Origin: Bacteroidota bacterium
GTDB taxonomy: Bacteria > Bacteroidota > Bacteroidia > Bacteroidales > F082
Assembly: GCA_023396415.1 (NCBI GenBank)
Contig: JAEWWJ010000114.1
Coordinates: 4,116 to 68,115 of the forward strand
Reading direction: 5' to 3'
DNA: 64,000 bases
Made by a program: the position numbers and the translations under genes. Positions 20,291-54,914 of the stretch are shown piece by piece (position 1 is the stretch's first letter; the number at the start of each line of letters is the position of its first letter). The notes under the pieces were generated by a model. That model ran no database searches and had not been told where the DNA came from. It saw nothing but the letters and a program-made list of their open reading frames with translations.

Positions 20291-20625
20291 AGGTTAAAGT
20301 TTTGATTTGTGCGGGTTAAAAGTATAGCAACTATTTCATATGGCAAAATTTATATTTGTTCTTTTTCAAGCTGAAGGAGGGCGGCTGGCTGTTTAAGGCT
20401 TAGACGATTAGCTAAAGGAGACTATAAGTGATTGCAGCTTTTCAAGAAATTAGAGGGTTTCAACCCGCACCTATGGGATAAATGATTGGATTTTCTATCT
20501 GAGGCTTAACCCTAAATCTTTATTTCCACATGGAGTTAAGACCTCTAGGAAATTTATTTTCGACTCCACAGAACCCTTTTGATGGGGGTTGCTGAAACCG
20601 TTTGTAAATCATGTGCTTTTATATT

Positions 20626-20633
20626 TAAATTTG
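20626..20633 (+). promoter_or_regulatory. Bacteroidota -7 promoter box (TAAATTTG)
   Basis: Exact TAnnTTTG, 16 nt upstream of ATG 20649. A second exact box (TATATTTG) lies at 20351..20358. Confidence 0.35.
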
Positions 20634-20648
20634 CGGCTTCAATTTTCA

Positions 20649-21848
20649 ATGGTTCTACTTATGTTAACTACAATTAACCTCCGCGGAAAGTGGTTTCGGT
20701 TGCTTTCAATCCTTATCATTTTGCTTGTTTTTAATCCGTTGATGGCACAGCCGCCTGCCGGCTACTATGCCACAGCCACGGGAACAGGAGCAACACTGAA
20801 AACACAGTTGTACGAAATCATTAAAGGTCATACCAATATGGGTTATGATGGTTTGTACAATTGTTATAAAACAACCGATGATGTGGACAACGCAGGCCAG
20901 ATTGTTTGGGATATGTACAGCGACATTCCCGGCCCGACTCCCGAGCCTTACGTGTATCGCTTCAGCAATTCGAGCGATAAATGTGGAACATACAACAGCG
21001 AAGGCGACTGCTATAACCGCGAACATTCCATGCCCGCGAGTTGGTTCAAGGACGCATCGCCCATGTATAGCGATCTTTTTCTCGTGGTGCCCACAGATGG
21101 TTATGTCAACAACCGACGTAGCAATTACCCATTTGGAGAAGTTGGTGCAGCCTCTTGGACTTCGCTAAACGGCAGTAAATTAGGTAGTTGTGATGTTCCA
21201 GGCTACTCAGGCATGGTATTTGAACCCATTGATGAATACAAAGGCGATTTTGCACGTGCCTATTTTTATATCGCTACACGCTATCAGAACGTCAATGCCA
21301 ATTGGTATAACAATACGCCACAGGCCAATGTAGCCTTGGTCAACAATAACTTTCCGTTTTTTGAAACCTGGTACCTCAACATGCTGGCGAGTTGGCATGT
21401 GAACGATCCTGTTTCGCAAAAAGAAATTGACCGCAACAATGCTGTTTATGCTTTTCAAGGCAACAGAAACCCGTTTGTTGACAATCCAGGCTATGTATAT
21501 AAGGTGTGGGGTGTGGGTCAACCCGAAACGATTGCCGAACCCACGCAATTGCCGACTAATTTTTCGAGCCGCAGTGTAGCCCTCAATTGGACTGATGGCG
21601 GCAATACCGATGGCTATTTGGTGCGCATCAGCAGTGTGGGCTTTGATGATATTGTTGCTCCAACCGACGGTTTGATGTACAGCGGCACCTCCGCTTATTA
21701 TATCACAGCCGGCACAGAAACTGCCATTATTGGTGGATTACAGCCCAACACCACCTATTATTTTAAACTTTTCCCCTACAACGGCAGTGGATTGGGCATC
21801 AATTATAAAGTGGACGGTCCGCCACAGATAAGCGTGCTTACAGATTAG
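20649..21848 (+). CDS. Secreted endonuclease I family nuclease with a C-terminal FN3 domain
   Basis: Signal/TM segment WFRLLSILIILLVFNPLMAQ. Endonuclease I-type strings are present: YYATATGTGATLKTQLYEIIKGH, YNREHSMPASWF, DLFLVVPTDGYVNNRRSNYPFGEV, NRNPFVDNP. The FN3-like tail contains YYFKLFPYNGSG. The start is moved to Met21 of the track ORF. Confidence 0.75.
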   Translation: MVLLMLTTINLRGKWFRLLSILIILLVFNPLMAQPPAGYYATATGTGATLKTQLYEIIKGHTNMGYDGLYNCYKTTDDVDNAGQIVWDMYSDIPGPTPEPYVYRFSNSSDKCGTYNSEGDCYNREHSMPASWFKDASPMYSDLFLVVPTDGYVNNRRSNYPFGEVGAASWTSLNGSKLGSCDVPGYSGMVFEPIDEYKGDFARAYFYIATRYQNVNANWYNNTPQANVALVNNNFPFFETWYLNMLASWHVNDPVSQKEIDRNNAVYAFQGNRNPFVDNPGYVYKVWGVGQPETIAEPTQLPTNFSSRSVALNWTDGGNTDGYLVRISSVGFDDIVAPTDGLMYSGTSAYYITAGTETAIIGGLQPNTTYYFKLFPYNGSGLGINYKVDGPPQISVLTD

Positions 21849-21888
21849 TAACGATTGACAAGTAAAAAGTTTTAAACCCGATCATTTT

Positions 21889-24800
21889 ATGAAACAAAGC
21901 ATATACCTCAGCTGTCTTCTCGCCTTCGCCCTGTTTATGGGGCCAAAAGGATGGACACAAACAGCGTTTACAGCCACTTATACTTTTGGGTCTAACGGCG
22001 ATGTAACTTCTTTTACCTATAATGGCACTACATACACCGGTATTGCACCTGCACCTATTATGAAAGTTGGTGTTACAAATACCTCCAGTACAGGGAATTT
22101 TCGCGCAAGCGGATGGCCAACTGCCGCAACAGCTGATGTGAATAAATATATCGGTTTTACGATTGCTGCTCAATCCGGATATAAGTTCACTGTAAACACC
22201 ATCAATTTTGGCATCGGACGCAGTGGAACCGGAACACGCACAACACAATGGCGAGGAAGTGCAGATACTTACAGTGCACTTTTAAATAATTATACTACAC
22301 TCAATAGCTCAATCACCAACACTTCTGGAGAACTCGCTAATCCCAATGAAAACTCTAACTGGACCGGAAACATTTTGACACTCGGTTCAGAATACGCAAA
22401 CATCACTACATCATGTGGTTTCAGGATGTATTTATATGCTGCTGGAGCCACCGCAGGCACAGCTGGTTTAGCAGGTCCTATTACCATCACCGGAACTTTT
22501 GAGCCCGATGCTCTGGTTCCCACTTTAACTGTTACCCCAACCACTTTGTCCAACTTCAATTATACTGTCGGGAACGGTCCTTCAGCAAGCCAATCCTACA
22601 CTTTGAGTGGTGCAAACCTAAGCGGCTTCCCAGGCAATATCACCGTAACCGGAAGTACCAACTACCAAGTTTCCACCAATAATTCAACTTTCAGCAATAG
22701 CCTACAAGTGCCGTACACAACTGCTACTTTGGCTTCAACACCAATTTATGTTCGCCTAAAATCCGGCCTTGCCGTTGGTTCATACAACAGCGAAACCATT
22801 GCCAGCACTGGCGGTGGAGCCACCGTAAAAAATGTTACAGTAAGCGGTAGCGTTTCGCCTCTGCCGATACCCGAAGCCCCTTTTGCCAATGCTGCAACTG
22901 CCGTTGGCGCGACAACATTCACTGCCAATTGGGAGACGACAGCAAATGCAACATCTTATGAAATAGATGTTTACACCCTAACCGGAAGTCCGACCACCGT
23001 CATATCAGAAAATTTTAATGGCTTTACTGCCGGCACAAGTGGTTCAGGAGCAGATGGTTCAGATGTTTCCGGAGGCCTCAACACCTATACCCAAACCGCA
23101 GGCTGGACTGGAAGCAAGGTGTATCAAGCCGGAGGGACGGCAAAAATGGGTTCATCGTCCGCTTTAGGATCTATCGTCAGCCCGGAAATAGATTTATCAT
23201 CCGCCTCAGGAAATTTCAGTCTTGCTTTTGAAGCCATGGCCTGGAGTGGAGATGCCACAAGTTTAAAAATTTATCTGAATGATGTTTTGGTGCAAACAGT
23301 AACGGGCTTGAATAACTCAAGTTACACTTTAAGCCCCTTCAGTATTGATTTATCGGGAGGCACCGCCAACTCAAAAATAAAATTTGAGGGCCAGCAAGCC
23401 TCAAAAGGTCGTTTCTTTTTGGAGAATTTAGTTGTAACTAAAGGTGCCACAACAATTACACCTATTTCCGGCTCGCCTTTTACCACCACCGAAACCAATA
23501 AAATCATAAGTGGCTTGAGTCCAAACACCACCTATTACTATAGGGTTCGGGCGAAAAACGCTGCCGGAACCAGTAACAATTCAAATGTCATTGCAACAAC
23601 AACTTTAGCAGCAGTAGGTCTGCCGGTCGTGTCCAATTCAACGGCCACCGCCATTGGTGAAACCATTGCTACACTAGGCGGCGAGATCATTTCCGACGAA
23701 GGATTTGCCATCACCGAAAGAGGAACGGTTTGGGCCACCAATCCGGGAGTTACCATCAGCGACAATAAACTGGCCGAAGGAAACACGGCAACAGGCGTTT
23801 TTAGTCATCAAAGAACAGGATTGCCGGCTGAAACATTGATTTATTTCAGGGCTTATGCCACCAACGCCAACGGAACAAGCCTTTCAGAAGAAAGCAGTTT
23901 CACCACTTATGCCTCTGAACCACTGACACATGCCACAGGGTTCAATGGCTCAAACGTTTCTACCACCTCAACTACCATCACCTTGACCTGGACAAACCCA
24001 ACACCGGCCTCGGAAAGCTATTTGATTAAAGGGGTTGTGGGCACAGGAACCATTGCCAATCCTGTTGATAATGTGCCAGAAACTGATGCCCTTTTGGTGA
24101 AGAATTTAGCCGCAACTGCTGAAAACTATACCTTTACGGGACTGACACCATCCACCACTTACACATTCAAGATTTTTCCATACAATGGATCAGGTTCAAA
24201 CCTTAACTATCTCGTTACCAATGCTCCTCAAACATCGGCTACCACCACAGCCCTACAGCCAAGGGCGAAAATTTTTATCAGCGAATACATCGAAGGCAAC
24301 TCCAATAACAAAGCCATCGAAATTGTAAACAAAGAGGCAACACCCATCAATCTGGCCTTACTCCATGTTAGGAATTATTCCAATGGTTCCGCTACAATTT
24401 CAACTCAACTGAATACGCTTTCGGGAACTCTTGCTCCCGGACAGGTTTTTGTGGTCGCCAATTCCGGCGCTGCTGCTGACTTTCTATCTTATGCCAATCA
24501 CACCGGTTCAGCAGTTACAACTTTCAATGGTGATGACGCTTTGGAGATTGTTTATGACGGACAAGTGACGGATGTATTCGGTACTATTGGCACAGACCCC
24601 GGCACTGCTTGGTCCGTTTGTGGTGTTGCCGATGCAACAGTAAATAAAACCCTCATCAGAAAATTAAGTGTAACCCAAGGAAACACTATAAATGCCGGTT
24701 CTTTTGGCACTGACCTTGAAAATACAGAATGGATCATCAAAGACATTGACTATTCCGCCAATTTGGGTGCTTATGGAAGTGCTTTTACCGGAACTACCAG

Positions 24801-26316
24801 CAGCGAATGGAGCATCAGTGCTAACTGGGACATGGGAATTCCCACTGAGAGTGTTGCCGCCATAATTCCTATTGCTGCTAACAATCCTCTTTTAAGCACT
24901 GAAAAAACGGTGGCCAATCTTTTGGTAAAAGAGGGCGGCAGCCTCAGCATTTCAGGCCGATTGACCGTTTCCGAAAAGCTCACCAACAATGCCGGAACAA
25001 GCGGAATGATCATCAAATCAAGTGGTTCGGGCACAGGATCGTTGCTACACAACAGCAACAATGTGTCGGCCACTGTTGAACGCTACATCACCGGAAACAC
25101 CGTCCTCACTGCCTTTGACTATCATTTGGTTTCCATTCCGCTCAACACCAATGTAACCACGGCACAGTTTATGGGAGCATATCTTTACCAATTCAATACA
25201 GCTAGTCAACAGTGGGAAACGATGGGTACTTCAACAACAACGCCGCTTTGGAACAACCAAGGCTTTATGATTTACTACCCCAATAGCAGCCACACTTACA
25301 ATTTCGAAGGCGAGCTCAACAATGGGACATTCAGTTTGTCAACACCTCTTTCATCGGCTGATCAATTTGCTTTGGTGCCTAACCCCTACCCCTCGGCCAT
25401 TGACTGGGATCAGGCTTCGGGCTGGACGAAAATGAATTTTTATGATGCCATCTGGATTTGGGATCCTGTAGCCAATCAATACGCCACTTACGGCGCATAT
25501 CTCGGAGTAAATGGCGCAACAAAAGACATCCCCTCTGGTCAAGCTTTTTTTGTTAAATCGAACGGTGGCAGTGCCTTTTTATCGGTCAACAATGCTGCCC
25601 GTTTGCACAGTGGTCAGCATTTCTTTAAAAAAGGTTCAAATCTCGAAAAAGACGTTTTGCGGATTCATGCCCATGCCAACAATTTGAAAGACGAGATCGC
25701 CATCAGATTTACACGCAATGCAGAAGCTGCCTTTGACACAAAAGACGTTGACAAGCTTTTTGGCGCCGATATCGCTCCTCAGCTCTATAGCCTCACTTCC
25801 GACAACCGCCAATTGGCCATCAACAGCCTTCCGTATTCTGCTGAAACGATGGTTGTTCCAATGGGTTTTGAAATTACGGGCGATGAAACCGTCAGTTTTA
25901 CACTGGAAGGTATTGAAAGCTTTGAACCTACGGTGGGCATATTACTCGAAGACGTGGTTTTGAATCAATGGATCAATTTACGCGAACAAAACACTTATAC
26001 TTTTCAACATTTGACCAACGAGAATCCACAGCGCTTTCTACTTCATTTTATGGGAGTTACAGCCACGGGCGAGCAAGCTGCAGCCGAAACCGGACAGATT
26101 TGGAATGTGGGTTCAAAGTTGTATTTGTCATTTCCTGAACGCCAAAATGAACGCGCTGAATTAGAAATTTATGATGTTCTTGGTCGCAAAATCGACAGTC
26201 AATCCCTAACCTTAGGCGCAGCCACAGTTGTTTCCATCTCTTATAATGGAATTGCTTTTGTTCAATTGCGCGTGGGCACTCAGGTGTATTCCAAAAAAGT
26301 GTTCATTCAACAATAA
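21889..26316 (+). CDS. Giant T9SS-sorted surface protein with FN3 repeats and a lamin-tail domain (LTD)
   Basis: 1475 aa with signal peptide MKQSIYLSCLLAFALFMG. FN3 signatures are YYYRVRAKNAAGTS and YTFKIFPYNGSGSN. The LTD-like segment is KIFISEYIEGNSNNKAIEIVNKEATPINL...LAPGQVFVVANSG...FNGDDALEIVYDG. The C-terminus LEIYDVLGRKI...VYSKKVFIQQ is T9SS CTD-like. Confidence 0.85.
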   Translation: MKQSIYLSCLLAFALFMGPKGWTQTAFTATYTFGSNGDVTSFTYNGTTYTGIAPAPIMKVGVTNTSSTGNFRASGWPTAATADVNKYIGFTIAAQSGYKFTVNTINFGIGRSGTGTRTTQWRGSADTYSALLNNYTTLNSSITNTSGELANPNENSNWTGNILTLGSEYANITTSCGFRMYLYAAGATAGTAGLAGPITITGTFEPDALVPTLTVTPTTLSNFNYTVGNGPSASQSYTLSGANLSGFPGNITVTGSTNYQVSTNNSTFSNSLQVPYTTATLASTPIYVRLKSGLAVGSYNSETIASTGGGATVKNVTVSGSVSPLPIPEAPFANAATAVGATTFTANWETTANATSYEIDVYTLTGSPTTVISENFNGFTAGTSGSGADGSDVSGGLNTYTQTAGWTGSKVYQAGGTAKMGSSSALGSIVSPEIDLSSASGNFSLAFEAMAWSGDATSLKIYLNDVLVQTVTGLNNSSYTLSPFSIDLSGGTANSKIKFEGQQASKGRFFLENLVVTKGATTITPISGSPFTTTETNKIISGLSPNTTYYYRVRAKNAAGTSNNSNVIATTTLAAVGLPVVSNSTATAIGETIATLGGEIISDEGFAITERGTVWATNPGVTISDNKLAEGNTATGVFSHQRTGLPAETLIYFRAYATNANGTSLSEESSFTTYASEPLTHATGFNGSNVSTTSTTITLTWTNPTPASESYLIKGVVGTGTIANPVDNVPETDALLVKNLAATAENYTFTGLTPSTTYTFKIFPYNGSGSNLNYLVTNAPQTSATTTALQPRAKIFISEYIEGNSNNKAIEIVNKEATPINLALLHVRNYSNGSATISTQLNTLSGTLAPGQVFVVANSGAAADFLSYANHTGSAVTTFNGDDALEIVYDGQVTDVFGTIGTDPGTAWSVCGVADATVNKTLIRKLSVTQGNTINAGSFGTDLENTEWIIKDIDYSANLGAYGSAFTGTTSSEWSISANWDMGIPTESVAAIIPIAANNPLLSTEKTVANLLVKEGGSLSISGRLTVSEKLTNNAGTSGMIIKSSGSGTGSLLHNSNNVSATVERYITGNTVLTAFDYHLVSIPLNTNVTTAQFMGAYLYQFNTASQQWETMGTSTTTPLWNNQGFMIYYPNSSHTYNFEGELNNGTFSLSTPLSSADQFALVPNPYPSAIDWDQASGWTKMNFYDAIWIWDPVANQYATYGAYLGVNGATKDIPSGQAFFVKSNGGSAFLSVNNAARLHSGQHFFKKGSNLEKDVLRIHAHANNLKDEIAIRFTRNAEAAFDTKDVDKLFGADIAPQLYSLTSDNRQLAINSLPYSAETMVVPMGFEITGDETVSFTLEGIESFEPTVGILLEDVVLNQWINLREQNTYTFQHLTNENPQRFLLHFMGVTATGEQAAAETGQIWNVGSKLYLSFPERQNERAELEIYDVLGRKIDSQSLTLGAATVVSISYNGIAFVQLRVGTQVYSKKVFIQQ

Positions 26317-28386: not shown

Positions 28387-28403
28387 ATTCCAATATTCGG
28401 AAT
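28387..28403 (+). promoter_or_regulatory. Inverted repeat ATTCC-N7-GGAAT upstream of lipoprotein paralog 1
   Basis: ATTCC AATATTC GGAAT. The GGAAT is 121 nt upstream of ATG 28520 (133 nt from ATG 28532). It belongs to the same half-site family as 31538, 32533, 13660 and 51437. Confidence 0.45.
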
Positions 28404-28519
28404 CGGTACGTATGAATACTTATACATATCAACCGATAAAAAAAATATATGTCTGAAAATAAGTTATATACTGAGGTCAAAAATATCTTGGTCTGATTAT
28501 TGCTTACCTCTAACCCCAA

Positions 28520-28894
28520 ATGAAAGAAAATATGAGAAAACTTACTTTTTTAACTGTTATAACGCTTCTTTTTGCTTTTTCGTCATGTAAAAAAGACACT
28601 CCCGAACCTGCTCAAACACTTCCTTCTAATATGAATGAGATGGTTGTCCCGCAAGGCTTTGATTGGAAAACATCCAAAAGCTTTGAGATTGTCATCACTG
28701 CTTCGGAAGGCGGCATTGTGGAAGCCGGCTCCACCGATGGAAGGAGCTACCAACGTGCTTATTTGAAAGCCAATCAACCTTACACCATGAAACTGAGTGT
28801 TCCTACGTATGAAAAAAAGTTGGTTCTCAGTTTTGCAGGCCAGCAAACCATTTTAGAGCTTACAACACAACAACTCAACCATCGTTTTCAATAA
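28520..28894 (+). CDS. Small lipoprotein, LruC-locus-associated paralog 1
   Basis: Lipobox LFAFSSC. It aligns along its full length with the 31673 and 32675 products (NMNEMVVPQGFDWKTSKSF..., YQRAYL, YTMKLSVPTYEKK). The start may be ATG 28532 (MRKLTF). Confidence 0.8.
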   Translation: MKENMRKLTFLTVITLLFAFSSCKKDTPEPAQTLPSNMNEMVVPQGFDWKTSKSFEIVITASEGGIVEAGSTDGRSYQRAYLKANQPYTMKLSVPTYEKKLVLSFAGQQTILELTTQQLNHRFQ

Positions 28895-28921
28895 CATTTT
28901 CTTAACCAGCAATAAATAACT

Positions 28922-31369
28922 ATGAAATATACAACATTCACTTACGCACTTAGTCTATTCATCGCATTGACATTTGGCACTCAAACCCATGCGCAAGAAT
29001 ACCTTCGGGTTTATACCAGCGCCCCCGGAACGATGTTTTCCAACGTCACGGGCAACACACTGATCACTGAAAATTTCTCCGGCTTCACCATTCCCAACAC
29101 CAGTTGGGCACCGCTACCCGGCGGCTACACCTCGGCGCTGGGCACCTACTACCAAACAGGTGGACAATCGTATGTTAAAGCCGACGATCAATATGGCGCA
29201 GGCCAAGGCAAATACATGTCAATTAAAGTAGGTGGAACAGTTAAGCTTAACTTTACCAATCCCAAACAGTATTTTGGTTTTGCTTGGCCTGCTGGCGATG
29301 GTAAAAACACCATTAAAATTATCCGTAGCGGACAAGTAATTGGAACTTTCACCACCAATAACGTTATTGCACAGTTGCCCAACAATGCCAGCAATTCAGT
29401 TACTGCTATCAACGGGTCGGTCTATACCACAAACCAATTTTATGGCAAACCCGGCACCGGCCAAAACGCCAACGAGCCTTATGCCTATTTGCATTTTCTC
29501 TCCTCACCCGGATTGATGTTCGATGCCGTTGAACTCTCGATGGGTGCCGGTGGCGAATTTGAAAACGACAACCACACTGTACTTATTGATGGCGCCCCCA
29601 TTTTGCAAGGCGACTGGGTAGAATTGATTTCTATTGTAACCCCAACGGCTGCCAACGACAGTAAAGTTGGCCTTTTTGGCGCAGCGGTAACACTCGATGT
29701 TTTAAGCAACGATACGCCCGGCGATGCCGCTTTGATTCCCGGAAGTGTTCAAATTGACGGAACAACAACCGCAGCTTCACCGCTTAACGTTGCAGGCGAA
29801 GGCGTTTGGAGCGTCAATTCCATTACCGGAGCCATCACCTTTACACCCGAAGTAGGTTTCATAGGCAATCCTACACCAATAAAATATTTCGTAAAAGACG
29901 CGAACAACTTCGCCTCTAACTTGGCAACCGTTACGGTAACCTATCCCATTCCGCCAACAGCTGTTGATAACACTGCAAGCACAGATATGAACGTTCCGGT
30001 TGACATCAATGTTTTGGCCAACGATATGGAAGGCAGCAGCGCCCTAGATCCAACAACGGTTACTTTCGTTGCCGGAACAACGCCTAATCCAACAACTGTA
30101 GGCACTTTTACCGCTGATCCACTGACCGGATTGGTAACCTTTACGCCAGCATTTGGTTTTACCGGAATTGCCACCGTTGACTATCGCATTTGCGACGTGG
30201 CAGGCAATTGCGCAATCGCCACCATCACCGTAACCGTAAATACCGTCAGTGGCCCTACCGCCAACGATGACAGCGCCATAACCCTCGTCAACACGCCTGT
30301 TGATATTGATGTGTTGGACAACGACACTCCAGGAGCTGTTGCTCTAGACCCCACTTCAATCACTTTTATCCCTGCCACAGCTCCCAATCCAACAACGGAA
30401 GGAATATTTACTGTTGATCCCTTATCGGGAGTGGTTACCTTCACTCCTGTAAATGGATTTTTGGGAGTGGTTTCCATTGATTACAGCGTTTGCGACCTGA
30501 ATGGATTGTGCCATATAGCCACCATTACTGTGAATGTAATCGTTGGTTTAACCAACCTCTATCCTGCCTTAGGCCCCGGCACACTTGCCTTCGAAGACCT
30601 CTGGCCAGGCAAAGGTGATTATGATTTTAACGATATGGTGATTGATTATCAGTTTAAAATTATTTCCAACCTATCGAACAACGTAGATGAAATTACCGGC
30701 ACATTTGTTCTCAAAGCTTTTGGCGCCTCCTTTGAAAACGGCTTTGGCTTCCAATTGGCCGATGGTATTGACCCCAACGATGTAACCGTTACAGGAACCG
30801 GTCTCACCGAAAACATCATTACCCTCAACCCAAGCGGCACTGAGGCCGGACAAACGAAAGCAACCATTATTGTTTTTGACAATGCTTTCGCCCATATGCC
30901 CCATCCCGGAATTGGAATAGGTGTAAACACAACCCCAGGCGCACCTTATGTAGCTCCGGTAACATTCACCGTGAAAATGGTTTTTAAACCCAATACCTAT
31001 AGCTACAACGATTTGGCTATTGGCAGCTTTAATCCTTTCCTTATTGTGAACAAAGTGCGCGGCCACGAAGTGCACCTTCCAAATGATGAACCGACCGACC
31101 TTGCCGATCTATCTTTGTTCGGACAATGGGAAGACAACAGCGATCCCGCAAACGGAAAATATTACATCACTGTGTTGAACCACCCTTGGGCGATCAACAT
31201 TTATGAAAAATTTGATTATCCCATCGAAAAACAAGATATCCTCGGCGTTCACCTGAAATTTGCTGAATGGGCTACCAGCAGCGGGGTGCTTTTCCCTGAT
31301 TGGTACAAAAACATTTCAGGATACCGCAACGAAGCACTGATATACGAAATTCCATCTACTACGCCATAA
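28922..31369 (+). CDS. Secreted surface protein with three cadherin/CshA-like repeats and a C-terminal LruC-type domain
   Basis: 815 aa with signal peptide MKYTTFTYALSLFIALTFGTQTHAQ. There are three ~100 aa repeats (..VD..A.T..N.PV.I.VL.ND....ALDP..V.F......P.T.G.FT.DP..G.VTFTP..GF.G...). The LruC-type region follows: LAFEDLWPGKGDYDFNDMVIDYQFK...NPFLIVNKVRGHEVHLPN...HPWAINIYEKFDYPIEKQDI...HLKFAEWATSSG. No T9SS CTD is present. Confidence 0.85.
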   Translation: MKYTTFTYALSLFIALTFGTQTHAQEYLRVYTSAPGTMFSNVTGNTLITENFSGFTIPNTSWAPLPGGYTSALGTYYQTGGQSYVKADDQYGAGQGKYMSIKVGGTVKLNFTNPKQYFGFAWPAGDGKNTIKIIRSGQVIGTFTTNNVIAQLPNNASNSVTAINGSVYTTNQFYGKPGTGQNANEPYAYLHFLSSPGLMFDAVELSMGAGGEFENDNHTVLIDGAPILQGDWVELISIVTPTAANDSKVGLFGAAVTLDVLSNDTPGDAALIPGSVQIDGTTTAASPLNVAGEGVWSVNSITGAITFTPEVGFIGNPTPIKYFVKDANNFASNLATVTVTYPIPPTAVDNTASTDMNVPVDINVLANDMEGSSALDPTTVTFVAGTTPNPTTVGTFTADPLTGLVTFTPAFGFTGIATVDYRICDVAGNCAIATITVTVNTVSGPTANDDSAITLVNTPVDIDVLDNDTPGAVALDPTSITFIPATAPNPTTEGIFTVDPLSGVVTFTPVNGFLGVVSIDYSVCDLNGLCHIATITVNVIVGLTNLYPALGPGTLAFEDLWPGKGDYDFNDMVIDYQFKIISNLSNNVDEITGTFVLKAFGASFENGFGFQLADGIDPNDVTVTGTGLTENIITLNPSGTEAGQTKATIIVFDNAFAHMPHPGIGIGVNTTPGAPYVAPVTFTVKMVFKPNTYSYNDLAIGSFNPFLIVNKVRGHEVHLPNDEPTDLADLSLFGQWEDNSDPANGKYYITVLNHPWAINIYEKFDYPIEKQDILGVHLKFAEWATSSGVLFPDWYKNISGYRNEALIYEIPSTTP

Positions 31370-31402
31370 GGCACAGGGTGGACCAGCCAAACGACTAAGC
31401 TA

Positions 31403-31437
31403 AATTCCCCGGTTTCTTTGCAAGAGATCGGGGGATT
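31403..31437 (+). terminator. Intrinsic terminator after the 815 aa LruC gene
   Basis: AATTCCCCG ... CGGGGGATT forms a 9-bp stem (one G-U pair) followed by TTTTCATTTT. Confidence 0.6.
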
Positions 31438-31537
31438 TTCATTTTACCCATGCAATTATTGCCTACTTTTGATGCAACTACACAAACAAAAACGGTAGCT
31501 CATACAAACAGAATACAAATCTACTTTTTATAACTTG

Positions 31538-31559
31538 TCCATTTTTTGGAATTTATTCC
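31538..31559 (+). promoter_or_regulatory. Composite inverted repeat TCC-N7-GGAAT-TT-ATTCC upstream of lipoprotein paralog 2
   Basis: TCC ATTTTTT GGAAT TT ATTCC. The GGAAT is 125 nt upstream of ATG 31673. TTTTGGAATTTATTC is identical to 51445..51459. Confidence 0.5.
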
Positions 31560-31627
31560 TAATTATGCATTTTCAAATAAGATTTATTTTTTTTATTTGC
31601 CTTAATATCAATGTTTTAAATAAAATT

Positions 31628-31635
31628 TAGGTTTG
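31628..31635 (+). promoter_or_regulatory. Bacteroidota -7 promoter box (TAGGTTTG)
   Basis: Exact TAnnTTTG, 38 nt upstream of ATG 31673. It overlaps a weaker -24/-12-like string, TTGGCATCATTTTGG. Confidence 0.45.
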
Positions 31636-31672
31636 GCATCATTTTGGAATAAGTAGATAAAACGCAAACATT

Positions 31673-32035
31673 ATGAAAAAGATCGCATTGTTACTGACCA
31701 TAGGATTTGCCCTTACCTTTACCTCATGTAAAAAAGACAAGGTAGAAAATCCTGTAAGCAAACCCAACACCATGGAGGAATTGCAAGTGCCTGCCAGTTT
31801 CAACTGGAAAACCACAAAAGACATCAGCCTTACCCTCACCGGAAATGGCAATGGTTTGGTGGAGGTGGCCAACGCAACAGGCGTGGCTTACCAAAAAGCA
31901 TATCTGAGCAGCGGCGTGGCCTACACCATGAAGCTAACCGTCCCCAGCTACGAAAAGACTGTTCAACTTAAATTTCTCGGCCAAACCGCAAGTCTGGAAT
32001 TGACAGCCAATGTTCTGCAATACCAATTCAACTGA
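31673..32035 (+). CDS. Small lipoprotein, LruC-locus-associated paralog 2 (orphan, no large partner gene downstream)
   Basis: 120 aa with lipobox LTFTSC. It is roughly 55-60 percent identical by eye to the 32675 product (TMEELQVPASFNWKTT, YQKAYL, YTMKLTVPSYEK). Confidence 0.85.
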   Translation: MKKIALLLTIGFALTFTSCKKDKVENPVSKPNTMEELQVPASFNWKTTKDISLTLTGNGNGLVEVANATGVAYQKAYLSSGVAYTMKLTVPSYEKTVQLKFLGQTASLELTANVLQYQFN

Positions 32036-32148
32036 TCCACAACAAAGAGCAAAAGCTGTGCAGGTGTTCAATTGAGCTTTTCAGCTTCAACTGTGAAGGA
32101 AAAACGTTGACAAGGCGCATACTCAACCTCAGTAGAAAAAAATAGATT

Positions 32149-32182
32149 ACACCCGAAGCATTCATTCAAATGCTTCGGGTGT
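32149..32182 (+). terminator. Intrinsic terminator after orphan lipoprotein gene
   Basis: ACACCCGAAGCAT / tcattcaa / ATGCTTCGGGTGT forms a perfect 13-bp stem followed by TTTT. Confidence 0.8.
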
Positions 32183-32532
32183 TTTGCTTTATACCGCAAC
32201 ACAAATTCAGAAAAATTTTCGAGTGGTTGTCAGCCATGCATCTCAGATGTATAGAATCTTTATCCCTACCCTACCCAAAGCACGGAAAACATTTAACTTT
32301 GGACTTAGCAGCCATATCTTTCGAAGGTAGGCAATGAATTTGTTGTCGAAAATGTTTGCTAAAAAAATATTGACCTTGTCATAAGTGATTTACTTATAGC
32401 TACATTTGTGTTCAGTTTATCCAACATCACCAAAAAAACTCCTTTAGAACCAAAAAACTACCCTTCCCTACGGAATAAAATGTTGGCGCATAAAAAAGTT
32501 GAGCTAAAAAAGATATATATCACCAAATTTCG

Positions 32533-32554
32533 TCTATTTTTTGGAAATATTTCC
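32533..32554 (+). promoter_or_regulatory. Composite inverted repeat TCT-N7-GGAAA-TA-TTTCC upstream of lipoprotein paralog 3
   Basis: TCT ATTTTTT GGAAA TA TTTCC. The GGAAA is 132 nt upstream of ATG 32675. Its flanks align with the 31538 element (ATTTTTTGGAA). Confidence 0.5.
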
Positions 32555-32674
32555 GATTTTAGATTTGATATTTTATAGGATTATATTTTATAAGCATTTA
32601 TATATCAACTATATACGAATCATTATTTTTTTGGCACGATATTAGAACTCAACGAATTGAAAATATAAAAACCC

Positions 32675-33034
32675 ATGAAAAAAACCACATTATTCATCGC
32701 CTTAGGTTTCATTCTGGTTTTGAGTTCCTGTAAAAAGGAAACTCCTCAACAACCGGATAACAAACCAACCACCATGGAGGAGCTCAAGGTTCCGGCGAGC
32801 TTCAATTGGAAAACCACTTCGGATTACAACCTCACCCTCACCGCCAATGCCAACGGCATTGTAGAGGTGAACAACACCAATGGTGCCACCTATCAAAAAG
32901 CCTATCTCACCGCCGGGATACCTTATACGATGAAGGTTGTTGTACCATCATACGAAAAGAGTGTTAAATTAAAATTTAGCGGTTCGGAAACGGTGCTTAA
33001 CCTAACCACTTCCAACTTAAGCCATCAATTTTAA
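32675..33034 (+). CDS. Small lipoprotein, LruC-locus-associated paralog 3
   Basis: 119 aa with lipobox LVLSSC. It is a paralog of the 28520 and 31673 products and ends 32 nt before the 1916 aa gene. Confidence 0.85.
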   Translation: MKKTTLFIALGFILVLSSCKKETPQQPDNKPTTMEELKVPASFNWKTTSDYNLTLTANANGIVEVNNTNGATYQKAYLTAGIPYTMKVVVPSYEKSVKLKFSGSETVLNLTTSNLSHQF

Positions 33035-33066
33035 AAAGATTTATCATCCAAGAAAACCGCAATAGA

Positions 33067-36000
33067 ATGAAAACAAAAACGTCTATTCCAAAAAAAGAGC
33101 AGAAAATGATCAGTAGATCATTGCTAACCTCACTCATGATGGTCATCGTTTTAATCCTTTCGGGATTGAACGTTTCGGCACAACAGTCTTTTATTTTGAA
33201 CCTTCAGGGTCAAACCTTGAGTTTCAAAGAAGTCAACCGCACTATTCTTGTCAATACCGGTAATGCCGGAAAAAACCAAGGTTCTATTCATAAATACGCT
33301 AATGTCATCACCAAAGATGGGATAACAGTTTATGCAAAAATGACGATTAAGGAAGTTCAAAGTGCGTTTATCACCCTATTTGATGATGATGCCATCACCG
33401 GCGAAATCAATCGTTTTCAGCCAAGGATAGGCACAACAAGTAATAGCAGTGGAGGCTTTATAGTTTATGAACTTGAGTTTTTCAATACGGCCAATAACGC
33501 TTCCGTTTTTGTTTACAACTATAACCTTACAGGAATTGATATTGATGGCAATAACTCTGCAAACAGAGAATATGTTGAAGTAGGCGGATATACAAGTTAT
33601 ACTTTAAACAACCCTACAGGTTTGACGGTTACAACCAATAATGCTACCGGAAGAACACGCTTCACAGGTATAAGTTATAGTTTAAATGGAGTTACTTTTG
33701 ACAACAGTGCTGCATTTATTGCTAACTTCTTAAATGCCAACAATAAAATCTCTTTTGCCTTAGGTCAAACGAAAGCTAACGATGAAAGGTTTTATTCTGT
33801 TCAGTTAGGTGTTGCCGGCGGAGTTTTTTCAGATCCTGTGATTGTTAACAATCCACTTCCTATTGCAGTTGATGATGTTGGAACACCAGTTAACAGCAAT
33901 ACCGGAGGAACTGCTGTGAACAATGTTCTTACAAATGACTTATACAATGGCTCAGCTGTTGTGCCCTCACAAGTAATGATTTCATTGGTTTCTCCTGCAT
34001 CCAATGCCGGTATCGTTCTGAATACAAGCACCGGAAAAGTTACCGTTGCACCCGGTACTCCCGCCGGAGATTACGAGCTGATTTATAAAATATGTATGGT
34101 TGCAGCACCCTCCGATTGTGATATCGCCACTGTATTCGTTAAAGTTTTAGCAGCTGATTTAAGCGTAGTAAAAACAGCAAGTAGTTTAGCTCCTGTTGTG
34201 GGTTCAGATATCACCTTTACGATTACTGCCACTAACAATGGCCCCAGTTTGGCAACCGATGTTACGGTTAACGATGTGCTTCCAAACGGTTATACATTAG
34301 TGAGCGCAACTCCTTCAACCGGGACATGGTCAGCACCTAACTGGACGATAGGTGATATGGAAGACGATGCAAGTGCTACTTTAACCGTTGTGGCTACAGT
34401 GAAAGCTAGTGGTTCTTATGCAAATACAGCAAGTATTTCAGGAACTTCCTATGACCCAACTTCAAATAACAATTCAAGCACGGTAACGCCAGTCCCTGTT
34501 GCATCAGCAGATTTAGGCATCGCTAAAACTGCCAGCTCGTTAACACCGGCAGTTGGTTCAAACATCACTTTCACACTAACAGCTACCAATAATGGCCCAA
34601 GTGCTGCAACCGGGGTCAAAGTTGTGGATGCGTTGCCCAATGGATATACTTTTGTAAGCGCCACTACTTCAACCGGATCCTATACCGCCCCCAACTGGAA
34701 CATTGGCAACCTTGCATTGAGTGGAACTGCCACCTTAAATATTGTAGCTACTGTAAACGCAACAGGAACTTATCTTAATACAGCTACAATTAGCGGAGCA
34801 CAAACCGATCCTGTTTCGGGAAACAATACAAGCAGTATAACCCCCGTGCCTACCGCTGCTACCGATCTCGCAATTACGAAAACAGTCAACAATGCTGCTC
34901 CCGCAGTGGGAACAAATGTTACTTTTACACTATCCGTAGTGAACAACGGCCCTAGCGCCGCCACCGGAGTAAAAGTTGTTGATGCACTGCCCGCAGGATA
35001 TACTTATGTTAGTAACACTCCTTCAACCGGAACATGGTCGGGCTCAACTTGGACCATTGGTGCTTTAGCCAACGGCGCCACAGCAACCCTGGCACTCGTT
35101 GCAACTGTAAATGCTACAGGTCCTTATGCCAACTCTGCAACTGTTAGCGGTAGCCAAACCGATCCTACTCCGGGAAACAACACCGGTACTGCAACAACAG
35201 TTCCAGTAGGCGCTGCCGATCTTTCGATTACAAAAACTGTTAGTAACGCTTCTCCCAATGCAGGAACAAACGTTACCTTCACCCTAACAGCAAAAAATAA
35301 CGGCCCCAGCGCTGCCACCGGAGTAACTGTAAACGATGTTTTACCCTCAGGATATACCTTTGTAAGCGCAACGCCGTCAGCAGGCACATGGACTGCTCCC
35401 AACTGGGTTATCGGCAATTTGGCCAATGGAGCAACTGTTACCTTGAGTATTGTTGCTACTGTTAAAGCCACCGGAAATTATGACAATACCGCCACCATCA
35501 CCGGCAACCAAACCGATCCGGTTTCTACCAACAACAGCAGCACTGCCACCGTAACCCCTTCGGCTGTAGCTGATTTGGAAGTTACAAAAACAGTTAACAA
35601 CACCACTCCTGATGTTGGCTCTACAGTAACCTTTACCATTACTGCCAAAAACATTGGCCCCAGTACTGCCACCGGAGTGATTGTAAATGATGTGTTACCG
35701 GCAGGATTTTCCCTCACCGGTGCAACTGCAAGTGTTGGAACATGGACTGCTCCCAACTGGACTATCGGTAGCCTTGCCCTTAATGCTACTGCTACTTTGT
35801 CTATCACGGCCACAGTAAACGCCGCCGGCCCTTATGTGAACACAGCAACCATCACTGGTCAGCAACCCGATCCTAACACAGCAAACAACTCATCTCAAGC
35901 AACTTGTGTTCCTGTTGCTAAAGCTGATCTTTCGATTACAAAAACTGTCAACAGCAGTGCGCCTGTTGTCGGCACCAATGTTACCTTCACCTTAACGGCC

Positions 36001-38817
36001 AAAAACAACGGCCCCAGCGCTGCCACCGGAGTGAGTGTAAACGATGTTTTACCCACAGGATATACCTTTGTAAGTGCCACGCCATCAGCAGGCACTTGGA
36101 CTGCACCCAACTGGACCATCGGTAATTTGGCCAATGGAGCCACCGTAACTTTAAACATTGTTGCCACCGTTTTGGCTACCGGAAGCTATGCCAACACCGC
36201 TACAATCAGCGGAACCACATCAGATCCAAATCCTGCCAACAACAGCAGTACCGTTACGCCCGGGCCGGCAGCATCGGCTGATGTAGCCATTGTGAAATCG
36301 GTGAACAACAGCAATCCATCGGTTGGAACAAACGTTATTTTTACCCTCACGGCCACCAACAACGGCCCGAGCAATGCTGCCAATGTGGTTGTAAACGACG
36401 TTTTGCCCTCAGGATACACTTTTGTAAATGCAAATACCACCTCCGGTAGCTGGGCAGCACCCAATTGGACAATTGGTACTTTAAACAATGGTGACACAAA
36501 AACCCTTACTATAGAAGCTAAGGTGAAGGCAAGCGGTTCATATACCAACACCGCTACCATCACAACCACAACCAACGATCCCAATACAGGAAACAACACA
36601 AGCAGTGTAACGCCGGGGCCATCAGCCGCTGCCGACCTCAGCGTGACTAAAACTGTGAGTAACGAAACCCCTACGGTAGGCACCAACGTAACCTTTACGA
36701 TTACTGCCACCAATAACGGCCCGAGCGCTGCCACCAATGTGAAGGTAAATGATATTTTGCCTGCAGGATACACTTTTGTAAGTTTTAGCCCTGTAACCTC
36801 CAACTGGACGGCCCCCAACTGGACCATCGGCAATTTGGCCAATGGCGCAAGCGCTACTTTGAACATTGTAGCCAAAGTTAACGCCGCCGGACCTTATGTT
36901 AATACGGCAACCATTTCAGGTACTGAAACCGATCCCAATATGGGAAATAACAGCAATTCAGCCACTTGCGTCCCGGTATCTTCGGCTGACCTCTCCATCG
37001 TTAAAAGTGTTGACAACGCCACTCCTACCGTAGGAAACAACGTTTCATTTACCCTCACAGCATCTAATATCGGTCCCAGCAACGCTACCAACGTGAAGGT
37101 TGTTGACCTATTACCGGCCGGATATACCTTTGTAAGTGCTACGCAGTCATCAGGTACGTGGGCTTCACCCAACTGGACGATCGGCAATCTGAATTCGGGA
37201 AGCACGGCCACCTTAATTATGGTTGCCAAAGTGAACGTAACAGGGCCTTATGCCAACACAGCCACCATCAGTGGTGATCAAACTGACCCCAACACTGACA
37301 ACAATTCAAGCACCATCACCCCCGGACCGGCAGCTTCTGCTGACCTCGGAGTACTTAAAACTGTTGACGTTACCACTCCAAAAGTAAACGATACCGTTAC
37401 CTTCACCATTACTGCCTCCAACAATGGCCTCAGCAATGCCACCCTCGTAAAGGTAACAGACGCTTTACCCGCAGGCTACACCTTTGTAAGTGCAACGCCT
37501 TCAGTAGGAGCGTGGGCTGCACCCGTCTGGACCATTGGCAATTTGGCCAAAGATGCCACTGCCACATTGAAAATTAAAGCCAAGGTAAAAGCCAACGGCC
37601 CTTATGCCAACACAGCTACCATTGAAGGCAATGAAACCGATCCTGTAGATGAGAACAATACTTCAACCGTTACCATCACTCCGGTAGCTTTGGTAGGCCC
37701 GGATGCCATCAATGACAATGCTTCCACCCTTGCCAACAGCCCTGTTGAAATCATTGTGCTATCAAACGATCTAATCGGCGAAGCAGCCTTGAATCCAACC
37801 ACTGTTATGCTCATCGCGACAACCGCACCCAATCCATCAACCGTTGGTGTGTTTACTGTTGATCCGGTTACCGGAGTGGTTACTTTTACGCCCGCACTCG
37901 GCTTCACTGGTGTTGCCTCTATTGACTACCAGGTGTGTGATATGAACAGCCTTTGCGATATCGCTAAAATCACAGTAACAGTTATTCAAGGTGCTGATAT
38001 TCTGTATCCTGCTACCGGTTTTGGAACTTTAGCTTTTGAAGATTTGTGGCCCGGTAAAGGCGACTACGATTTCAATGACCTTGTTTTGGATTACCAATTC
38101 AAAGTGGTGATCAATGCTTACAACAAAGTTGAAAAAGTTACAGGAACCTTCATCATCAAAGCTTTTGGAGCCACTTTTGAAAACGGATTCGGATTCCAAT
38201 TGAGCAACGCCATCAACAGCAGCGATCTTACAGTAACCGGTTACGAACTTAGCGAGAACTTTATTAGCCTCGAAGGAAACGGAACGGAATCAGGTCAATC
38301 GAAACCTACCATTATTGTGTATGACAACGCCTACAAACAAATGGAACATCCGGGCATTGGAATTGGTGTGAACACCACTCCCGGCGCACCTTATGTTACT
38401 CCTGATACATTGGTGATTAACATCGTGTTAAAACCCAACACTTATTCGATTTCCGATCTCGACATCAGCAACTTCAATCCTTTCTTGATCGTGAATAAAG
38501 TGCGGAGCCATGAAGTACATTTGCCTTATTATCCACCCACTGACCTTGTCAATCCTGCCTTGTTCGGTCAATATGAGGACAATAGCAATCCTTCAAGCAA
38601 CAGATATTATGTTACAGACACCAACTTGCCCTGGGCCATTAACATCTACGAAAAGTTCGATTATCCTCATGAAAAACAAGAGATCATTTGGGCTCACCTT
38701 AAGTTTGCCGAATGGGCAACAAGCGGCGGCGTTCAGTTCCCCGACTGGTATAAAAACCTTACGGGATATCGCAACCAAAGCTTGATCTATCAAGTTCCTG
38801 CACAACCCAACCCATAA
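33067..38817 (+). CDS. Giant secreted surface protein: N-terminal domain, Ig/cadherin-like domain, ten DUF11-type repeats, cadherin/CshA-like repeat, C-terminal LruC-type domain
   Basis: 1916 aa with signal/TM segment LLTSLMMVIVLILSGLNVSAQ. There are ten 118-aa units beginning ADL(S/G)(I/V)(T/V)K(T/S) and containing TF(T)(L/I)TA.NNGPS.A..V.V.D.LP.GYTFVSA. The C-terminal region is LAFEDLWPGKGDYDFNDLVLDYQFK...NPFLIVNKVRSHEVHLP...LPWAINIYEKFDYPHEKQEI...HLKFAEWATSGG. The start could instead be ATG 33106. Confidence 0.9.
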   Translation: MKTKTSIPKKEQKMISRSLLTSLMMVIVLILSGLNVSAQQSFILNLQGQTLSFKEVNRTILVNTGNAGKNQGSIHKYANVITKDGITVYAKMTIKEVQSAFITLFDDDAITGEINRFQPRIGTTSNSSGGFIVYELEFFNTANNASVFVYNYNLTGIDIDGNNSANREYVEVGGYTSYTLNNPTGLTVTTNNATGRTRFTGISYSLNGVTFDNSAAFIANFLNANNKISFALGQTKANDERFYSVQLGVAGGVFSDPVIVNNPLPIAVDDVGTPVNSNTGGTAVNNVLTNDLYNGSAVVPSQVMISLVSPASNAGIVLNTSTGKVTVAPGTPAGDYELIYKICMVAAPSDCDIATVFVKVLAADLSVVKTASSLAPVVGSDITFTITATNNGPSLATDVTVNDVLPNGYTLVSATPSTGTWSAPNWTIGDMEDDASATLTVVATVKASGSYANTASISGTSYDPTSNNNSSTVTPVPVASADLGIAKTASSLTPAVGSNITFTLTATNNGPSAATGVKVVDALPNGYTFVSATTSTGSYTAPNWNIGNLALSGTATLNIVATVNATGTYLNTATISGAQTDPVSGNNTSSITPVPTAATDLAITKTVNNAAPAVGTNVTFTLSVVNNGPSAATGVKVVDALPAGYTYVSNTPSTGTWSGSTWTIGALANGATATLALVATVNATGPYANSATVSGSQTDPTPGNNTGTATTVPVGAADLSITKTVSNASPNAGTNVTFTLTAKNNGPSAATGVTVNDVLPSGYTFVSATPSAGTWTAPNWVIGNLANGATVTLSIVATVKATGNYDNTATITGNQTDPVSTNNSSTATVTPSAVADLEVTKTVNNTTPDVGSTVTFTITAKNIGPSTATGVIVNDVLPAGFSLTGATASVGTWTAPNWTIGSLALNATATLSITATVNAAGPYVNTATITGQQPDPNTANNSSQATCVPVAKADLSITKTVNSSAPVVGTNVTFTLTAKNNGPSAATGVSVNDVLPTGYTFVSATPSAGTWTAPNWTIGNLANGATVTLNIVATVLATGSYANTATISGTTSDPNPANNSSTVTPGPAASADVAIVKSVNNSNPSVGTNVIFTLTATNNGPSNAANVVVNDVLPSGYTFVNANTTSGSWAAPNWTIGTLNNGDTKTLTIEAKVKASGSYTNTATITTTTNDPNTGNNTSSVTPGPSAAADLSVTKTVSNETPTVGTNVTFTITATNNGPSAATNVKVNDILPAGYTFVSFSPVTSNWTAPNWTIGNLANGASATLNIVAKVNAAGPYVNTATISGTETDPNMGNNSNSATCVPVSSADLSIVKSVDNATPTVGNNVSFTLTASNIGPSNATNVKVVDLLPAGYTFVSATQSSGTWASPNWTIGNLNSGSTATLIMVAKVNVTGPYANTATISGDQTDPNTDNNSSTITPGPAASADLGVLKTVDVTTPKVNDTVTFTITASNNGLSNATLVKVTDALPAGYTFVSATPSVGAWAAPVWTIGNLAKDATATLKIKAKVKANGPYANTATIEGNETDPVDENNTSTVTITPVALVGPDAINDNASTLANSPVEIIVLSNDLIGEAALNPTTVMLIATTAPNPSTVGVFTVDPVTGVVTFTPALGFTGVASIDYQVCDMNSLCDIAKITVTVIQGADILYPATGFGTLAFEDLWPGKGDYDFNDLVLDYQFKVVINAYNKVEKVTGTFIIKAFGATFENGFGFQLSNAINSSDLTVTGYELSENFISLEGNGTESGQSKPTIIVYDNAYKQMEHPGIGIGVNTTPGAPYVTPDTLVINIVLKPNTYSISDLDISNFNPFLIVNKVRSHEVHLPYYPPTDLVNPALFGQYEDNSNPSSNRYYVTDTNLPWAINIYEKFDYPHEKQEIIWAHLKFAEWATSGGVQFPDWYKNLTGYRNQSLIYQVPAQPNP
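34153..37692 (+). repeat. Ten in-register 354-bp coding tandem repeats (DUF11-type units)
   Basis: Unit starts fall at 34153, 34507, 34861, 35215, 35569, 35923, 36277, 36631, 36985 and 37339, exactly 354 nt apart with no indels. Units 4 and 6 are the most similar pair. Confidence 0.9.
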
Positions 38818-51460: not shown

Positions 51461-51563
51461 TAATTTGAAACATAATACTCAAAACAGATGAATTTCAAAT
51501 AATTATAAACCAGTGACTTATAAGAGTGGTTCGTTTGTTGCTTTACTGAAAACAAAGAAAAAA

Positions 51564-51980
51564 ATGACAACGCCCGACAAAATGACAATTCCAAAGCCGA
51601 AACCGAAAGTAGAGTCTGAACGCATCATTCATATTTTGGTGGTGGACGACCTCAAGGTGAACTATCTGTTAGTGAAGGCCATGTTGGGCAAGCTGAACGC
51701 ACAAATTTATTATACCGAGAGCGGCTTTAAAGCCATTGAACACGTCAGAAGCAGCAATAAAATTGACGTTGTTTTGATGGACTTCAATATGCCCGGCATG
51801 GATGGCAGGGAAACCACCGAGTTGATTAAATCATTTAAACCCAACCTTCCTGTCATTTCGCTCAGCACTTTCACCGACAAGGCTGTTTTTGACCAAAGCA
51901 GCGCCCCTTATGATGCATACATCACAAAACCCGTCAACCCTGAACTCCTTATTGAATTGATTTTCAAGGTTATTCAATAA
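51564..51980 (+). CDS. Stand-alone response regulator receiver protein (CheY-like)
   Basis: ILVVDDLKVNYLL, VLMDFNMPGMDG and AYITKP are receiver-domain hallmarks, and there is no output domain. The start is set at ATG 51564 rather than GTG 51513 because promoter-like strings lie inside the extension. Confidence 0.8.
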   Translation: MTTPDKMTIPKPKPKVESERIIHILVVDDLKVNYLLVKAMLGKLNAQIYYTESGFKAIEHVRSSNKIDVVLMDFNMPGMDGRETTELIKSFKPNLPVISLSTFTDKAVFDQSSAPYDAYITKPVNPELLIELIFKVIQ

Positions 51981-52088: not shown

Positions 52089-52117
52089 CCAGCTGTACCC
52101 TAAAAATCATTTACTGC

Positions 52118-54892: not shown

Positions 54893-54914
54893 AAAAAATA
54901 ACACCTACCGCTTT

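Follow-up and report, generated by a model that had tools for sequence, protein, structure and literature searches.

The DNA analysed here (the window, 64 kb of contig JAEWWJ010000114.1) comes from an uncultured Bacteroidales species that recurs at 99.3% identity across several metagenomes. It encodes three small predicted lipoproteins, two of which are each followed directly by the gene of a very large secreted protein (giants 1 and 2) ending in an LruC domain, and a third LruC protein is encoded on the opposite strand (Table 1). An initial annotation of the same DNA had proposed three paralogous small lipoprotein genes, at 28520, 31673 and 32675. Their open reading frames (ORFs) and lipoboxes are confirmed by our analysis, with pairwise identities of 43-59% between the three products, and so are the gaps of 27 nt ahead of giant 1 and 32 nt ahead of giant 2. 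The annotation had also described a common C-terminus behind unrelated passengers; the giants are indeed 63% identical over their last 400 amino acids (aa), the remaining sequence being unrelated.

Table 1. Genes, domains and DNA elements of the small lipoprotein/LruC region (nucleotide positions in the window; HMM, hidden Markov model)
Feature	Position	Strand	Remarks
Fused LruC lipoprotein, lipobox LQSC	10453-13578	-	1041 aa; small-family N-terminus, repeat passenger, LruC domain
LruC domain of fused protein	10507-11211	-	aa 790-1024; 236 bits
Small-family N-terminus of fused protein	13168-13578	-	~137 aa; hhalign and HMM
-24/-12-type promoter-like element TTGGAAC-AAATC-TTGA	13598-13613	-	~37 nt upstream of fused gene; one mismatch to family motif
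Inverted repeat ATTCCAATATTCGGAAT	28387-28403	.	~94 nt 5' of -24/-12-like element; candidate activator-binding site
-24/-12-type promoter-like element TTGGTCT-GATTA-TTGCT	28488-28504	+	ahead of small gene 1
Small lipoprotein 1, lipobox FSSC	28520-28894	+	124 aa; partner of giant 1; family HMM E 1.3e-43
Giant 1	28922-31369	+	815 aa; signal peptidase I type signal; Npun_F0296-like domain, CshA/Big_9 repeats, LruC domain
LruC domain of giant 1	30578-31309	+	aa 553-796; TIGR04456/PF16130 match
Terminator-like hairpin	31402-31438	+	17 pairs and T run; closes small1-giant1 unit
Inverted repeat GGAATTTATTCC	31548-31559	.	5' of orphan small gene
-24/-12-type promoter-like element TTGGCAT-CATTT-TGGA	31633-31648	+	ahead of orphan small gene
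Small lipoprotein 2, lipobox FTSC	31673-32035	+	120 aa; orphan, large ORF absent downstream
Terminator-like hairpin	32149-32182	+	14-15 pairs; 3' of orphan small gene
Perfect inverted repeat GGAAATATTTCC	32543-32554	.	5' of small gene 3
-24/-12-type promoter-like element TTGGCAC-GATAT-TAGA	32631-32646	+	ahead of small gene 3
Small lipoprotein 3, lipobox LSSC	32675-33034	+	119 aa; partner of giant 2
Giant 2	33067-38817	+	1916 aa; signal peptidase I type signal; at least 10 DUF11 repeats, one Big_9/CshA repeat, LruC domain
LruC domain of giant 2	38023-38754	+	aa 1653-1896; TIGR04456/PF16130 match

Split and fused LruC proteins in the window

The LruC domain is recognized by TIGR04456 (LruC_dom) with 245.2 and 245.1 bits in the giants and 236.4 bits in the protein at 10453-13578, against a cut-off of 36, and by PF16130 (DUF4842) with 189 and 183 bits in the two giants (cut-off 22). 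It is C-terminal in all three proteins, with 17-20 residues from the domain end to the stop codon. Neither giant has a lipobox, and among the LruC proteins of the window only 10453-13578 carries one. The giants are predicted to be cleaved by signal peptidase I, at …THA↓QE in the protein starting at 28922 and at …VSA↓QQ in the protein starting at 33067. Giant 2 has two possible starts: translation from the first ATG (33067) adds 13 residues (MKTKTSIPKKEQK) ahead of a typical signal peptide, and in sister contigs the gene was called from the internal ATG at 33106, which gives 1903 aa and a gap of 71 nt instead of 32.

The third LruC protein had been correctly placed at 10453-13578 in the initial annotation, which overlooked that it is no unpaired exception but represents a fused form, a lipoprotein whose own N-terminus belongs to the family of the small proteins. 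This N-terminus aligns with the family in hhalign (97.6%, E 3.4e-12, 121 columns) and in an HMM search (E 8.9e-11). Without its signal peptide the protein still scores 19.5 bits against the family, the best of 1000 shuffled sequences reaching 8.7. In terms of predicted domains, all three LruC proteins of the window fit one rule: the partner domain is either part of the same chain or comes from the gene upstream.

In fused-type proteins, an Asp-rich motif (DTDGDGVPDNLDDYPNDP), which we take to resemble a thrombospondin type 3 calcium-binding repeat, stands immediately before the LruC domain (at ~aa 745-765 in 10453-13578 and at ~aa 100-135 in P0159, a natural minimal fusion described below). 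Split-type giants have a Big_9/cadherin-like repeat at this position.

Adjacency and fusion of the two elements across Bacteroidota

Profile searches place the small proteins in a large family hitherto without a name. An exhaustive search gave 672 cluster representatives at E<=1e-3, 218 of them at E<=1e-10, and a word-indexed protein search found 9 relatives. Nearly all of the 150 members listed are 110-135 aa long. By their signal peptide and lipobox, in which the Cys is invariant (58/58 aligned members) and position -1 is S, A or G (147/148 members), they are predicted bacterial lipoproteins; the best-conserved segment, V-P-x-x-F-[DN]-W-K-T-T, lies directly ahead of the first strand. No recurrent Pfam family was found among the 58 aligned members, the small proteins of the window match no model in Pfam or NCBIfam, and a search of PDB sequences with the family returned noise only. 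The small proteins thus match no characterised family, and the module is undescribed in these family libraries, as had been supposed from the start. Our literature search found no paper that mentions a small partner of LruC proteins. One apparent member with 19 profile matches, P0126 (2998 aa), was rejected as a false positive; it is a cadherin-repeat protein of the RTX type.

For a survey of gene neighbourhoods, V-x3-F-[DN]-W-K-T-T-x-[DE] was turned into a degenerate DNA pattern and sought in one genome per species. The pattern gave 117 loci, 98 of which hold a member of the small family by HMM; the remaining 19 are chance matches (Enterococcus, Psychromonas, Chloroflexota and others) with neither a small protein nor LruC. 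Carriers belong to Bacteroidales, Lentimicrobiaceae, Prolixibacteraceae, Paludibacter, Chitinophaga, Cyclobacterium, Arcicella and Schleiferiaceae, together with one Chlorobiota metagenome-assembled genome. An LruC ORF comes directly after the small gene in 63 of 75 assessable stand-alone cases, and the other twelve divide equally between a frameshift-like LruC fragment (4), another ORF (4) and nothing downstream (4). In the reverse direction, seven of 42 non-fused LruC proteins, representing varied passenger types, were picked blind to their upstream regions, and each of them is directly preceded by a family member (E 1e-28 to 1e-38). Small genes are enriched beside LruC genes, and their adjacency is near-obligate. 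The 'strict pairing' of the initial annotation goes too far, since the window's middle small gene, one of three, is an orphan.

This orphan (31673) has its own promoter-like element and terminator, followed by 640 nt free of ORFs (31673-32674). A 55% identical relative (L007) has just two small genes, each with a giant. Because only these two pairs occur there, the orphan seems to be either a lineage-specific duplication of promoter and small gene or the remnant of a lost giant. Orphan small genes are also present at four other loci (L013, L069, L099 and L116). At the other extreme, tandem arrays of at least five small-gene/LruC-giant pairs with different passengers lie on JAGXRB010000375.1 (1-24000; L048, L034, L062), and PHDU01000075.1 (L108, L102, L127) is another contig with such an array. 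These arrays suggest diversification through duplication of whole modules.

Fusion of the two elements is frequent. The survey holds 16 assessable fused ORFs, in which the small-protein domain forms the N-terminus; LruC and a lipobox are each found in 16/16. The minimal fused protein was also used to retrieve LruC proteins; of the 120 with the best scores, 78 have an N-terminal small-family domain and 42 are without it. The 78 fused database proteins either have a lipobox-like Cys or are truncated at their N-terminus. Signal peptidase I type signals, mostly of the form …A↓Q…, are found in all 67 giants that have an upstream small gene. The lipobox is on the fused chain in one form and on the small protein, not on the giant with its ordinary signal peptide, in the other; either way there is a single lipobox, and hence one predicted lipid anchor, per module. 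We also noticed that Gln follows most of the predicted signal peptidase I sites of giants (…A↓QE, …A↓QS; L014-L130 as well as 28922 and 33067 of the window). A preference for N-terminal Gln (pyroglutamate) has been reported for exported proteins of Bacteroidota, and the cleavage sites of the giants fit it.

Clustering of the passenger N-termini from the 67 partner giants gives 10 groups without detectable mutual similarity, and the LruC domain is the sole element common to all partners. Published ice-binding proteins that end in DUF4842 add to this variety (PMC9957290). With passengers of 10 unrelated classes, LruC is the only element that the small protein could recognise in all giants. A neighbour-joining tree built from 174 LruC domains requires at least 5 changes of the fused or split state, compared with a mean of 58 for shuffled labels, which indicates that the split is old and heritable and that it has arisen or reverted few times. 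Fused and split forms are equivalent. Pairs of this kind, with separate genes in one genome and a single gene in another ('Rosetta stone' pairs), are a classical sign of a functional, usually physical link. The LruC module differs from such pairs in two respects: its parts lie at the two ends of the protein with a variable passenger of up to ~1600 aa between them, and the split also shifts the lipid anchor to a separate polypeptide.

Fused versions elsewhere could raise the suspicion that the split is an artefact of a frameshifted or mis-assembled single lipoprotein gene. Giant 2 is itself broken into two ORFs of 490 and 1394 aa in one conspecific metagenome contig of 99.3% identity (L001:6410-12160 versus L002:6427-12138), by a frameshift or stop within the array of DUF11 repeats or else by an assembly error. 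We see practically no room for such an artefact, which is already refuted: six independent metagenome contigs (99.3% identity) show the identical split, each giant has a start codon of its own and an intact signal peptide, and the split recurs in at least 60 species.

It is also very improbable that the genes are merely co-regulated neighbours with independent functions, the small lipoprotein having no contact with the giant. Orphan small genes (31673 and 8/75 in the survey) would agree with this, but adjacency holds across orders of Bacteroidota and with 10 unrelated passenger types, the reverse test was positive in 7/7 cases, and exactly these two elements fuse repeatedly, the lipobox being strictly complementary between the two forms. 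The interpretation of the region as a dedicated partner module, put forward in the initial annotation, is strongly supported by these comparisons of genomes, namely by adjacency, the reverse test and the fusions. Its core claim also withstood the refuting tests that the annotation had set: the survey found the small genes next to LruC genes, and the small proteins hit no well-characterised family. The accompanying idea of surface display remains an assumption.

Structure models and the predicted lipid anchor

The AlphaFold model of small lipoprotein 3 (predicted local distance difference test, pLDDT, 93) consists of a signal helix, a linker of ~25 aa after the Cys and a 7-strand beta-sandwich at aa 48-118 (~72 aa). 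Foldseek returned only generic Ig-like sandwiches for this model, the best at E 0.03, and no specific relative. As a proxy for the contact between the small protein and LruC we used a model of P0159, a natural minimal fusion of 423 aa in which an N-terminal domain and the LruC domain are joined by a short Asp-rich linker. This model reaches a pLDDT of 87.6 and a predicted template-modelling score (pTM) of 0.87, with ~30 residues disordered. Since a freely placed domain would by our arithmetic give a pTM of ~0.7, the N-terminal domain appears to be placed confidently against LruC, and the fusion is predicted to form one rigid unit. The sole significant Foldseek match of the P0159 model is PDB 3OQQ (BACOVA_00967, 'putative lipoprotein'), aligned over its full length with E 1.2e-10, and from this full-length alignment the order of the two domains appears common to both proteins. 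At the sequence level, the LruC domain gave a single weak PDB match (3oqq_A) and the minimal fusion protein gave none.

We propose that a module widespread in Bacteroidota is probably present here in a split form with two genes, the small lipoprotein serving as lipid anchor of the LruC giant. In the one-gene form, a single chain would comprise a lipidated Cys, a linker, a small N-terminal beta-sandwich, a variable passenger and a C-terminal LruC domain. In the split form, these parts would be shared between a separate lipoprotein of ~120 aa and a co-transcribed passenger-LruC protein whose ordinary, cleavable signal peptide directs it to Sec. Through its beta-sandwich, the small lipoprotein would then bind the LruC domain of its own giant, as the sandwich would within one chain in fused proteins, and this physical binding would supply an otherwise unanchored adhesin-like giant with its only outer-membrane lipid anchor. 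Among the mechanisms considered, anchoring is the likeliest, and we infer it with reasonable though limited assurance. What is new here is a form of LruC-type lipoprotein whose predicted lipid-anchor module is split off into a gene of its own, apparently co-transcribed with that of the giant. New as well are the protein family and its conserved promoter architecture.

Several observations weigh against this anchor model. About 11-16% of small genes, 31673 of the window among them, have no LruC gene downstream. The 3OQQ structure and the P0159 model superpose with a TM score of 0.49-0.51 and a root-mean-square deviation of 10.4 A, so that the domain arrangement is not independently confirmed, and the small-family profile fails to detect the N-terminus of 3OQQ. 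Beyond the linker and the first-strand motif, the fused protein of the window matches the family weakly. The model offers no explanation of how a non-lipidated giant would cross the outer membrane, and LruC of Leptospira was reported at the inner side of the outer membrane (PMC9901810).

The small lipoprotein could instead be a transient helper of folding, export or quality control at the outer membrane, which in fused proteins would act as an intramolecular chaperone. Adjacency and fusion data are equally compatible with such a role, and a function in export would account for giants without a type IX secretion system (T9SS) signal leaving the periplasm; the partial export-signal pattern C-X-K-(D/E) in the small family points the same way (PMC5080379). 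A 1:1 fusion in one chain, kept in 78/120 sampled LruC proteins, nevertheless suits a structural partner better than a catalytic helper, as does the confident single-unit model of P0159, and the fold gives no hint of enzymatic or chaperone activity beyond generic Ig-like matches. We thus regard a helper role as possible but rather unlikely.

LruC (DUF4842) has been described as a C-terminal domain of unknown function in Bacteroides, Vibrio, Shewanella and Leptospira, whose described members are lipoproteins (PMC8280789). DUF4842 models look similar to a Staphylococcus aureus adhesin domain that binds collagen, and host components are bound by LIC13086 (PMC8280789). This similarity and binding, and the weak secondary Foldseek matches of the P0159 model to adhesin and leukocidin folds, could mean that LruC is a distal ligand-binding adhesin head and that the small lipoprotein holds another region of the giant or binds the same external ligand. 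We consider this improbable, as the unrelated N-terminal and passenger regions leave the conserved small protein no conserved target except LruC.

By their C-terminal LruC domain, all three proteins of the window resemble Leptospira LruC, LIC13086 and BACOVA_00967 (3OQQ) of Bacteroides ovatus. The fused protein at 10453-13578, a predicted lipidated chain with a C-terminal DUF4842, is like the described LruC-type lipoproteins; the two giants differ from these in having no lipobox, the predicted lipid anchor being encoded by a separate gene upstream.

Bacteroidota have two known routes to the cell surface, lipoprotein export and the T9SS. The initial annotation had contrasted the three LruC proteins, as lacking a T9SS sorting domain, with the neighbouring cargo genes at 2789, 5907 and 21889. 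None of the three matches TIGR04183 or PF18962 at E<=0.1, and 2789 and 5907 score above the TIGR04183 cut-off, whereas 21889 falls just short of it (22.3 versus 23 bits). Neither giants nor small proteins have an NCBIfam or Pfam match to the type B T9SS C-terminal domain or to PorP/SprF. The closest analogy in logic is still found in the T9SS, where type B cargo adjoins the gene of its cognate PorP/SprF-family partner (SprB/SprF) and the pair is often duplicated as a unit. Both systems combine a variable giant, a constant C-terminal domain and a dedicated adjacent partner gene. The giants of the window, however, end in LruC (~245 aa) and not in a T9SS sorting domain, and their partner is a beta-sandwich lipoprotein of ~100 aa encoded upstream, not a beta-barrel. 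LruC also occurs in Vibrio, Shewanella and Leptospira (PMC8280789). These three genera are not known to possess a T9SS.

As to lipoprotein export, the small proteins of the window continue with CKKDT, CKKDK and CKKET from the lipobox Cys, a partial match to the export signal. Across the family, K stands at +3 in 87% and D or E at +4 in 68% of members, as in surface lipoproteins with C-X-K-(D/E)2-X, but a second acidic residue (+5) occurs in only ~1/5. In experiments on this Bacteroidota surface lipoprotein export signal, the second acidic residue was needed (PMC5080379). Surface exposure of the small lipoproteins is plausible from these residues, and adhesin-like and ice-binding passengers speak for the cell surface; the module may face either side of the outer membrane. 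It is tempting to extend this to an escort function, in which the small lipoprotein would be a trans-acting lipid anchor that picks up its non-lipidated giant in the periplasm by the LruC domain and takes it 'piggy-back' to the surface through surface-lipoprotein export, independently of the T9SS, with the modules switched on jointly by sigma-54 and an activator binding the inverted repeats. We regard this fuller scheme as doubtful; if true, it would represent a surface-display pathway independent of the T9SS.

The anchor model would offer a first testable role for LruC/DUF4842, that of a docking module for a lipid-anchored partner. The adhesin-like proteins concerned are numerous and varied, with DUF11, cadherin-like or beta-helix passengers among them, and have neither a lipobox nor a T9SS signal. 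All end in LruC, which comes with one small lipoprotein domain, either on the same chain or from the neighbouring gene. The small proteins form a new family of several hundred clusters, and the module could serve as a simple genetic system for studying how the outer membrane of Bacteroidota retains non-lipidated proteins or lets them pass. For annotation, the module suggests the rule that an LruC protein without lipobox should have a small gene upstream.

Upstream DNA and neighbouring genes

The shared DNA element that the initial annotation had noticed ahead of the small genes is real and conserved across the family. The motif TGGYAY-N5-TWGM is present at -80 to -30 in 45/101 upstream regions of the family, against a mean of 0.1 after shuffling and not once on the reverse strand, and TTGGAA/TTCCAA inverted pairs occur in 42/101, with a peak at -160 to -120 (shuffle mean 1.45). 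Promoter-like DNA is thus common across the family, and the -24/-12-like motif is absent at some loci, L140 included. In the window, the inverted repeats lie 81-94 nt upstream of the promoter-like elements. The strict motif is found at 32631 and once within the coding sequence 21889-26316, the latter probably by chance; the three other sites have one mismatch each. Matches to sigma-70-type promoters were not more frequent than in shuffled sequences.

In the sigma-54 consensus, TGGCAC-N5-7-TTGCT, the conserved pairs are GG (-24) and GC (-12) (PMC12316311). The -24 half and the N5 spacing of our elements agree with it, but in the -12 half TTGA or TAGA mostly takes the place of TTGC, and among the elements of the window the canonical TTGC is present only at 28488-28504. 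The upstream DNA may equally well be or not be a sigma-54-like promoter with an upstream activator site, and dependence on sigma-54 would follow in the former case. Neither rpoN nor a gene for an enhancer-binding protein lies within the 64-kb window, and no local regulator was found there.

One terminator-like hairpin comes after giant 1 and another after the orphan, and in the window no small gene is separated from its giant by such a hairpin; the transcription units are therefore predicted to be small gene 1 with giant 1, small gene 2 alone, and small gene 3 with giant 2.

Further genes of the window include, in a row at 51513-56477, a stand-alone response regulator receiver, a 955-aa hybrid histidine kinase (TPR, PAS) and an FG-GAP repeat protein, with no relation to the small lipoproteins and LruC proteins as far as seen. 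T9SS cargo flanks the region at 2789-8549 and 20589-26316, with a 978-aa protein, an M6-family metalloprotease (5907-8549) and an endonuclease I (20589-21848); the 1475-aa nuclease-like protein at 21889-26316 in this cluster is the one whose sorting-domain score is marginally below the cut-off. At the survey locus L140 (290-4248), a small-gene/LruC pair lies between genes for an OmpR-type response regulator and a histidine kinase, with a second LruC gene just upstream, and these two-component genes could be a local regulator of the module.

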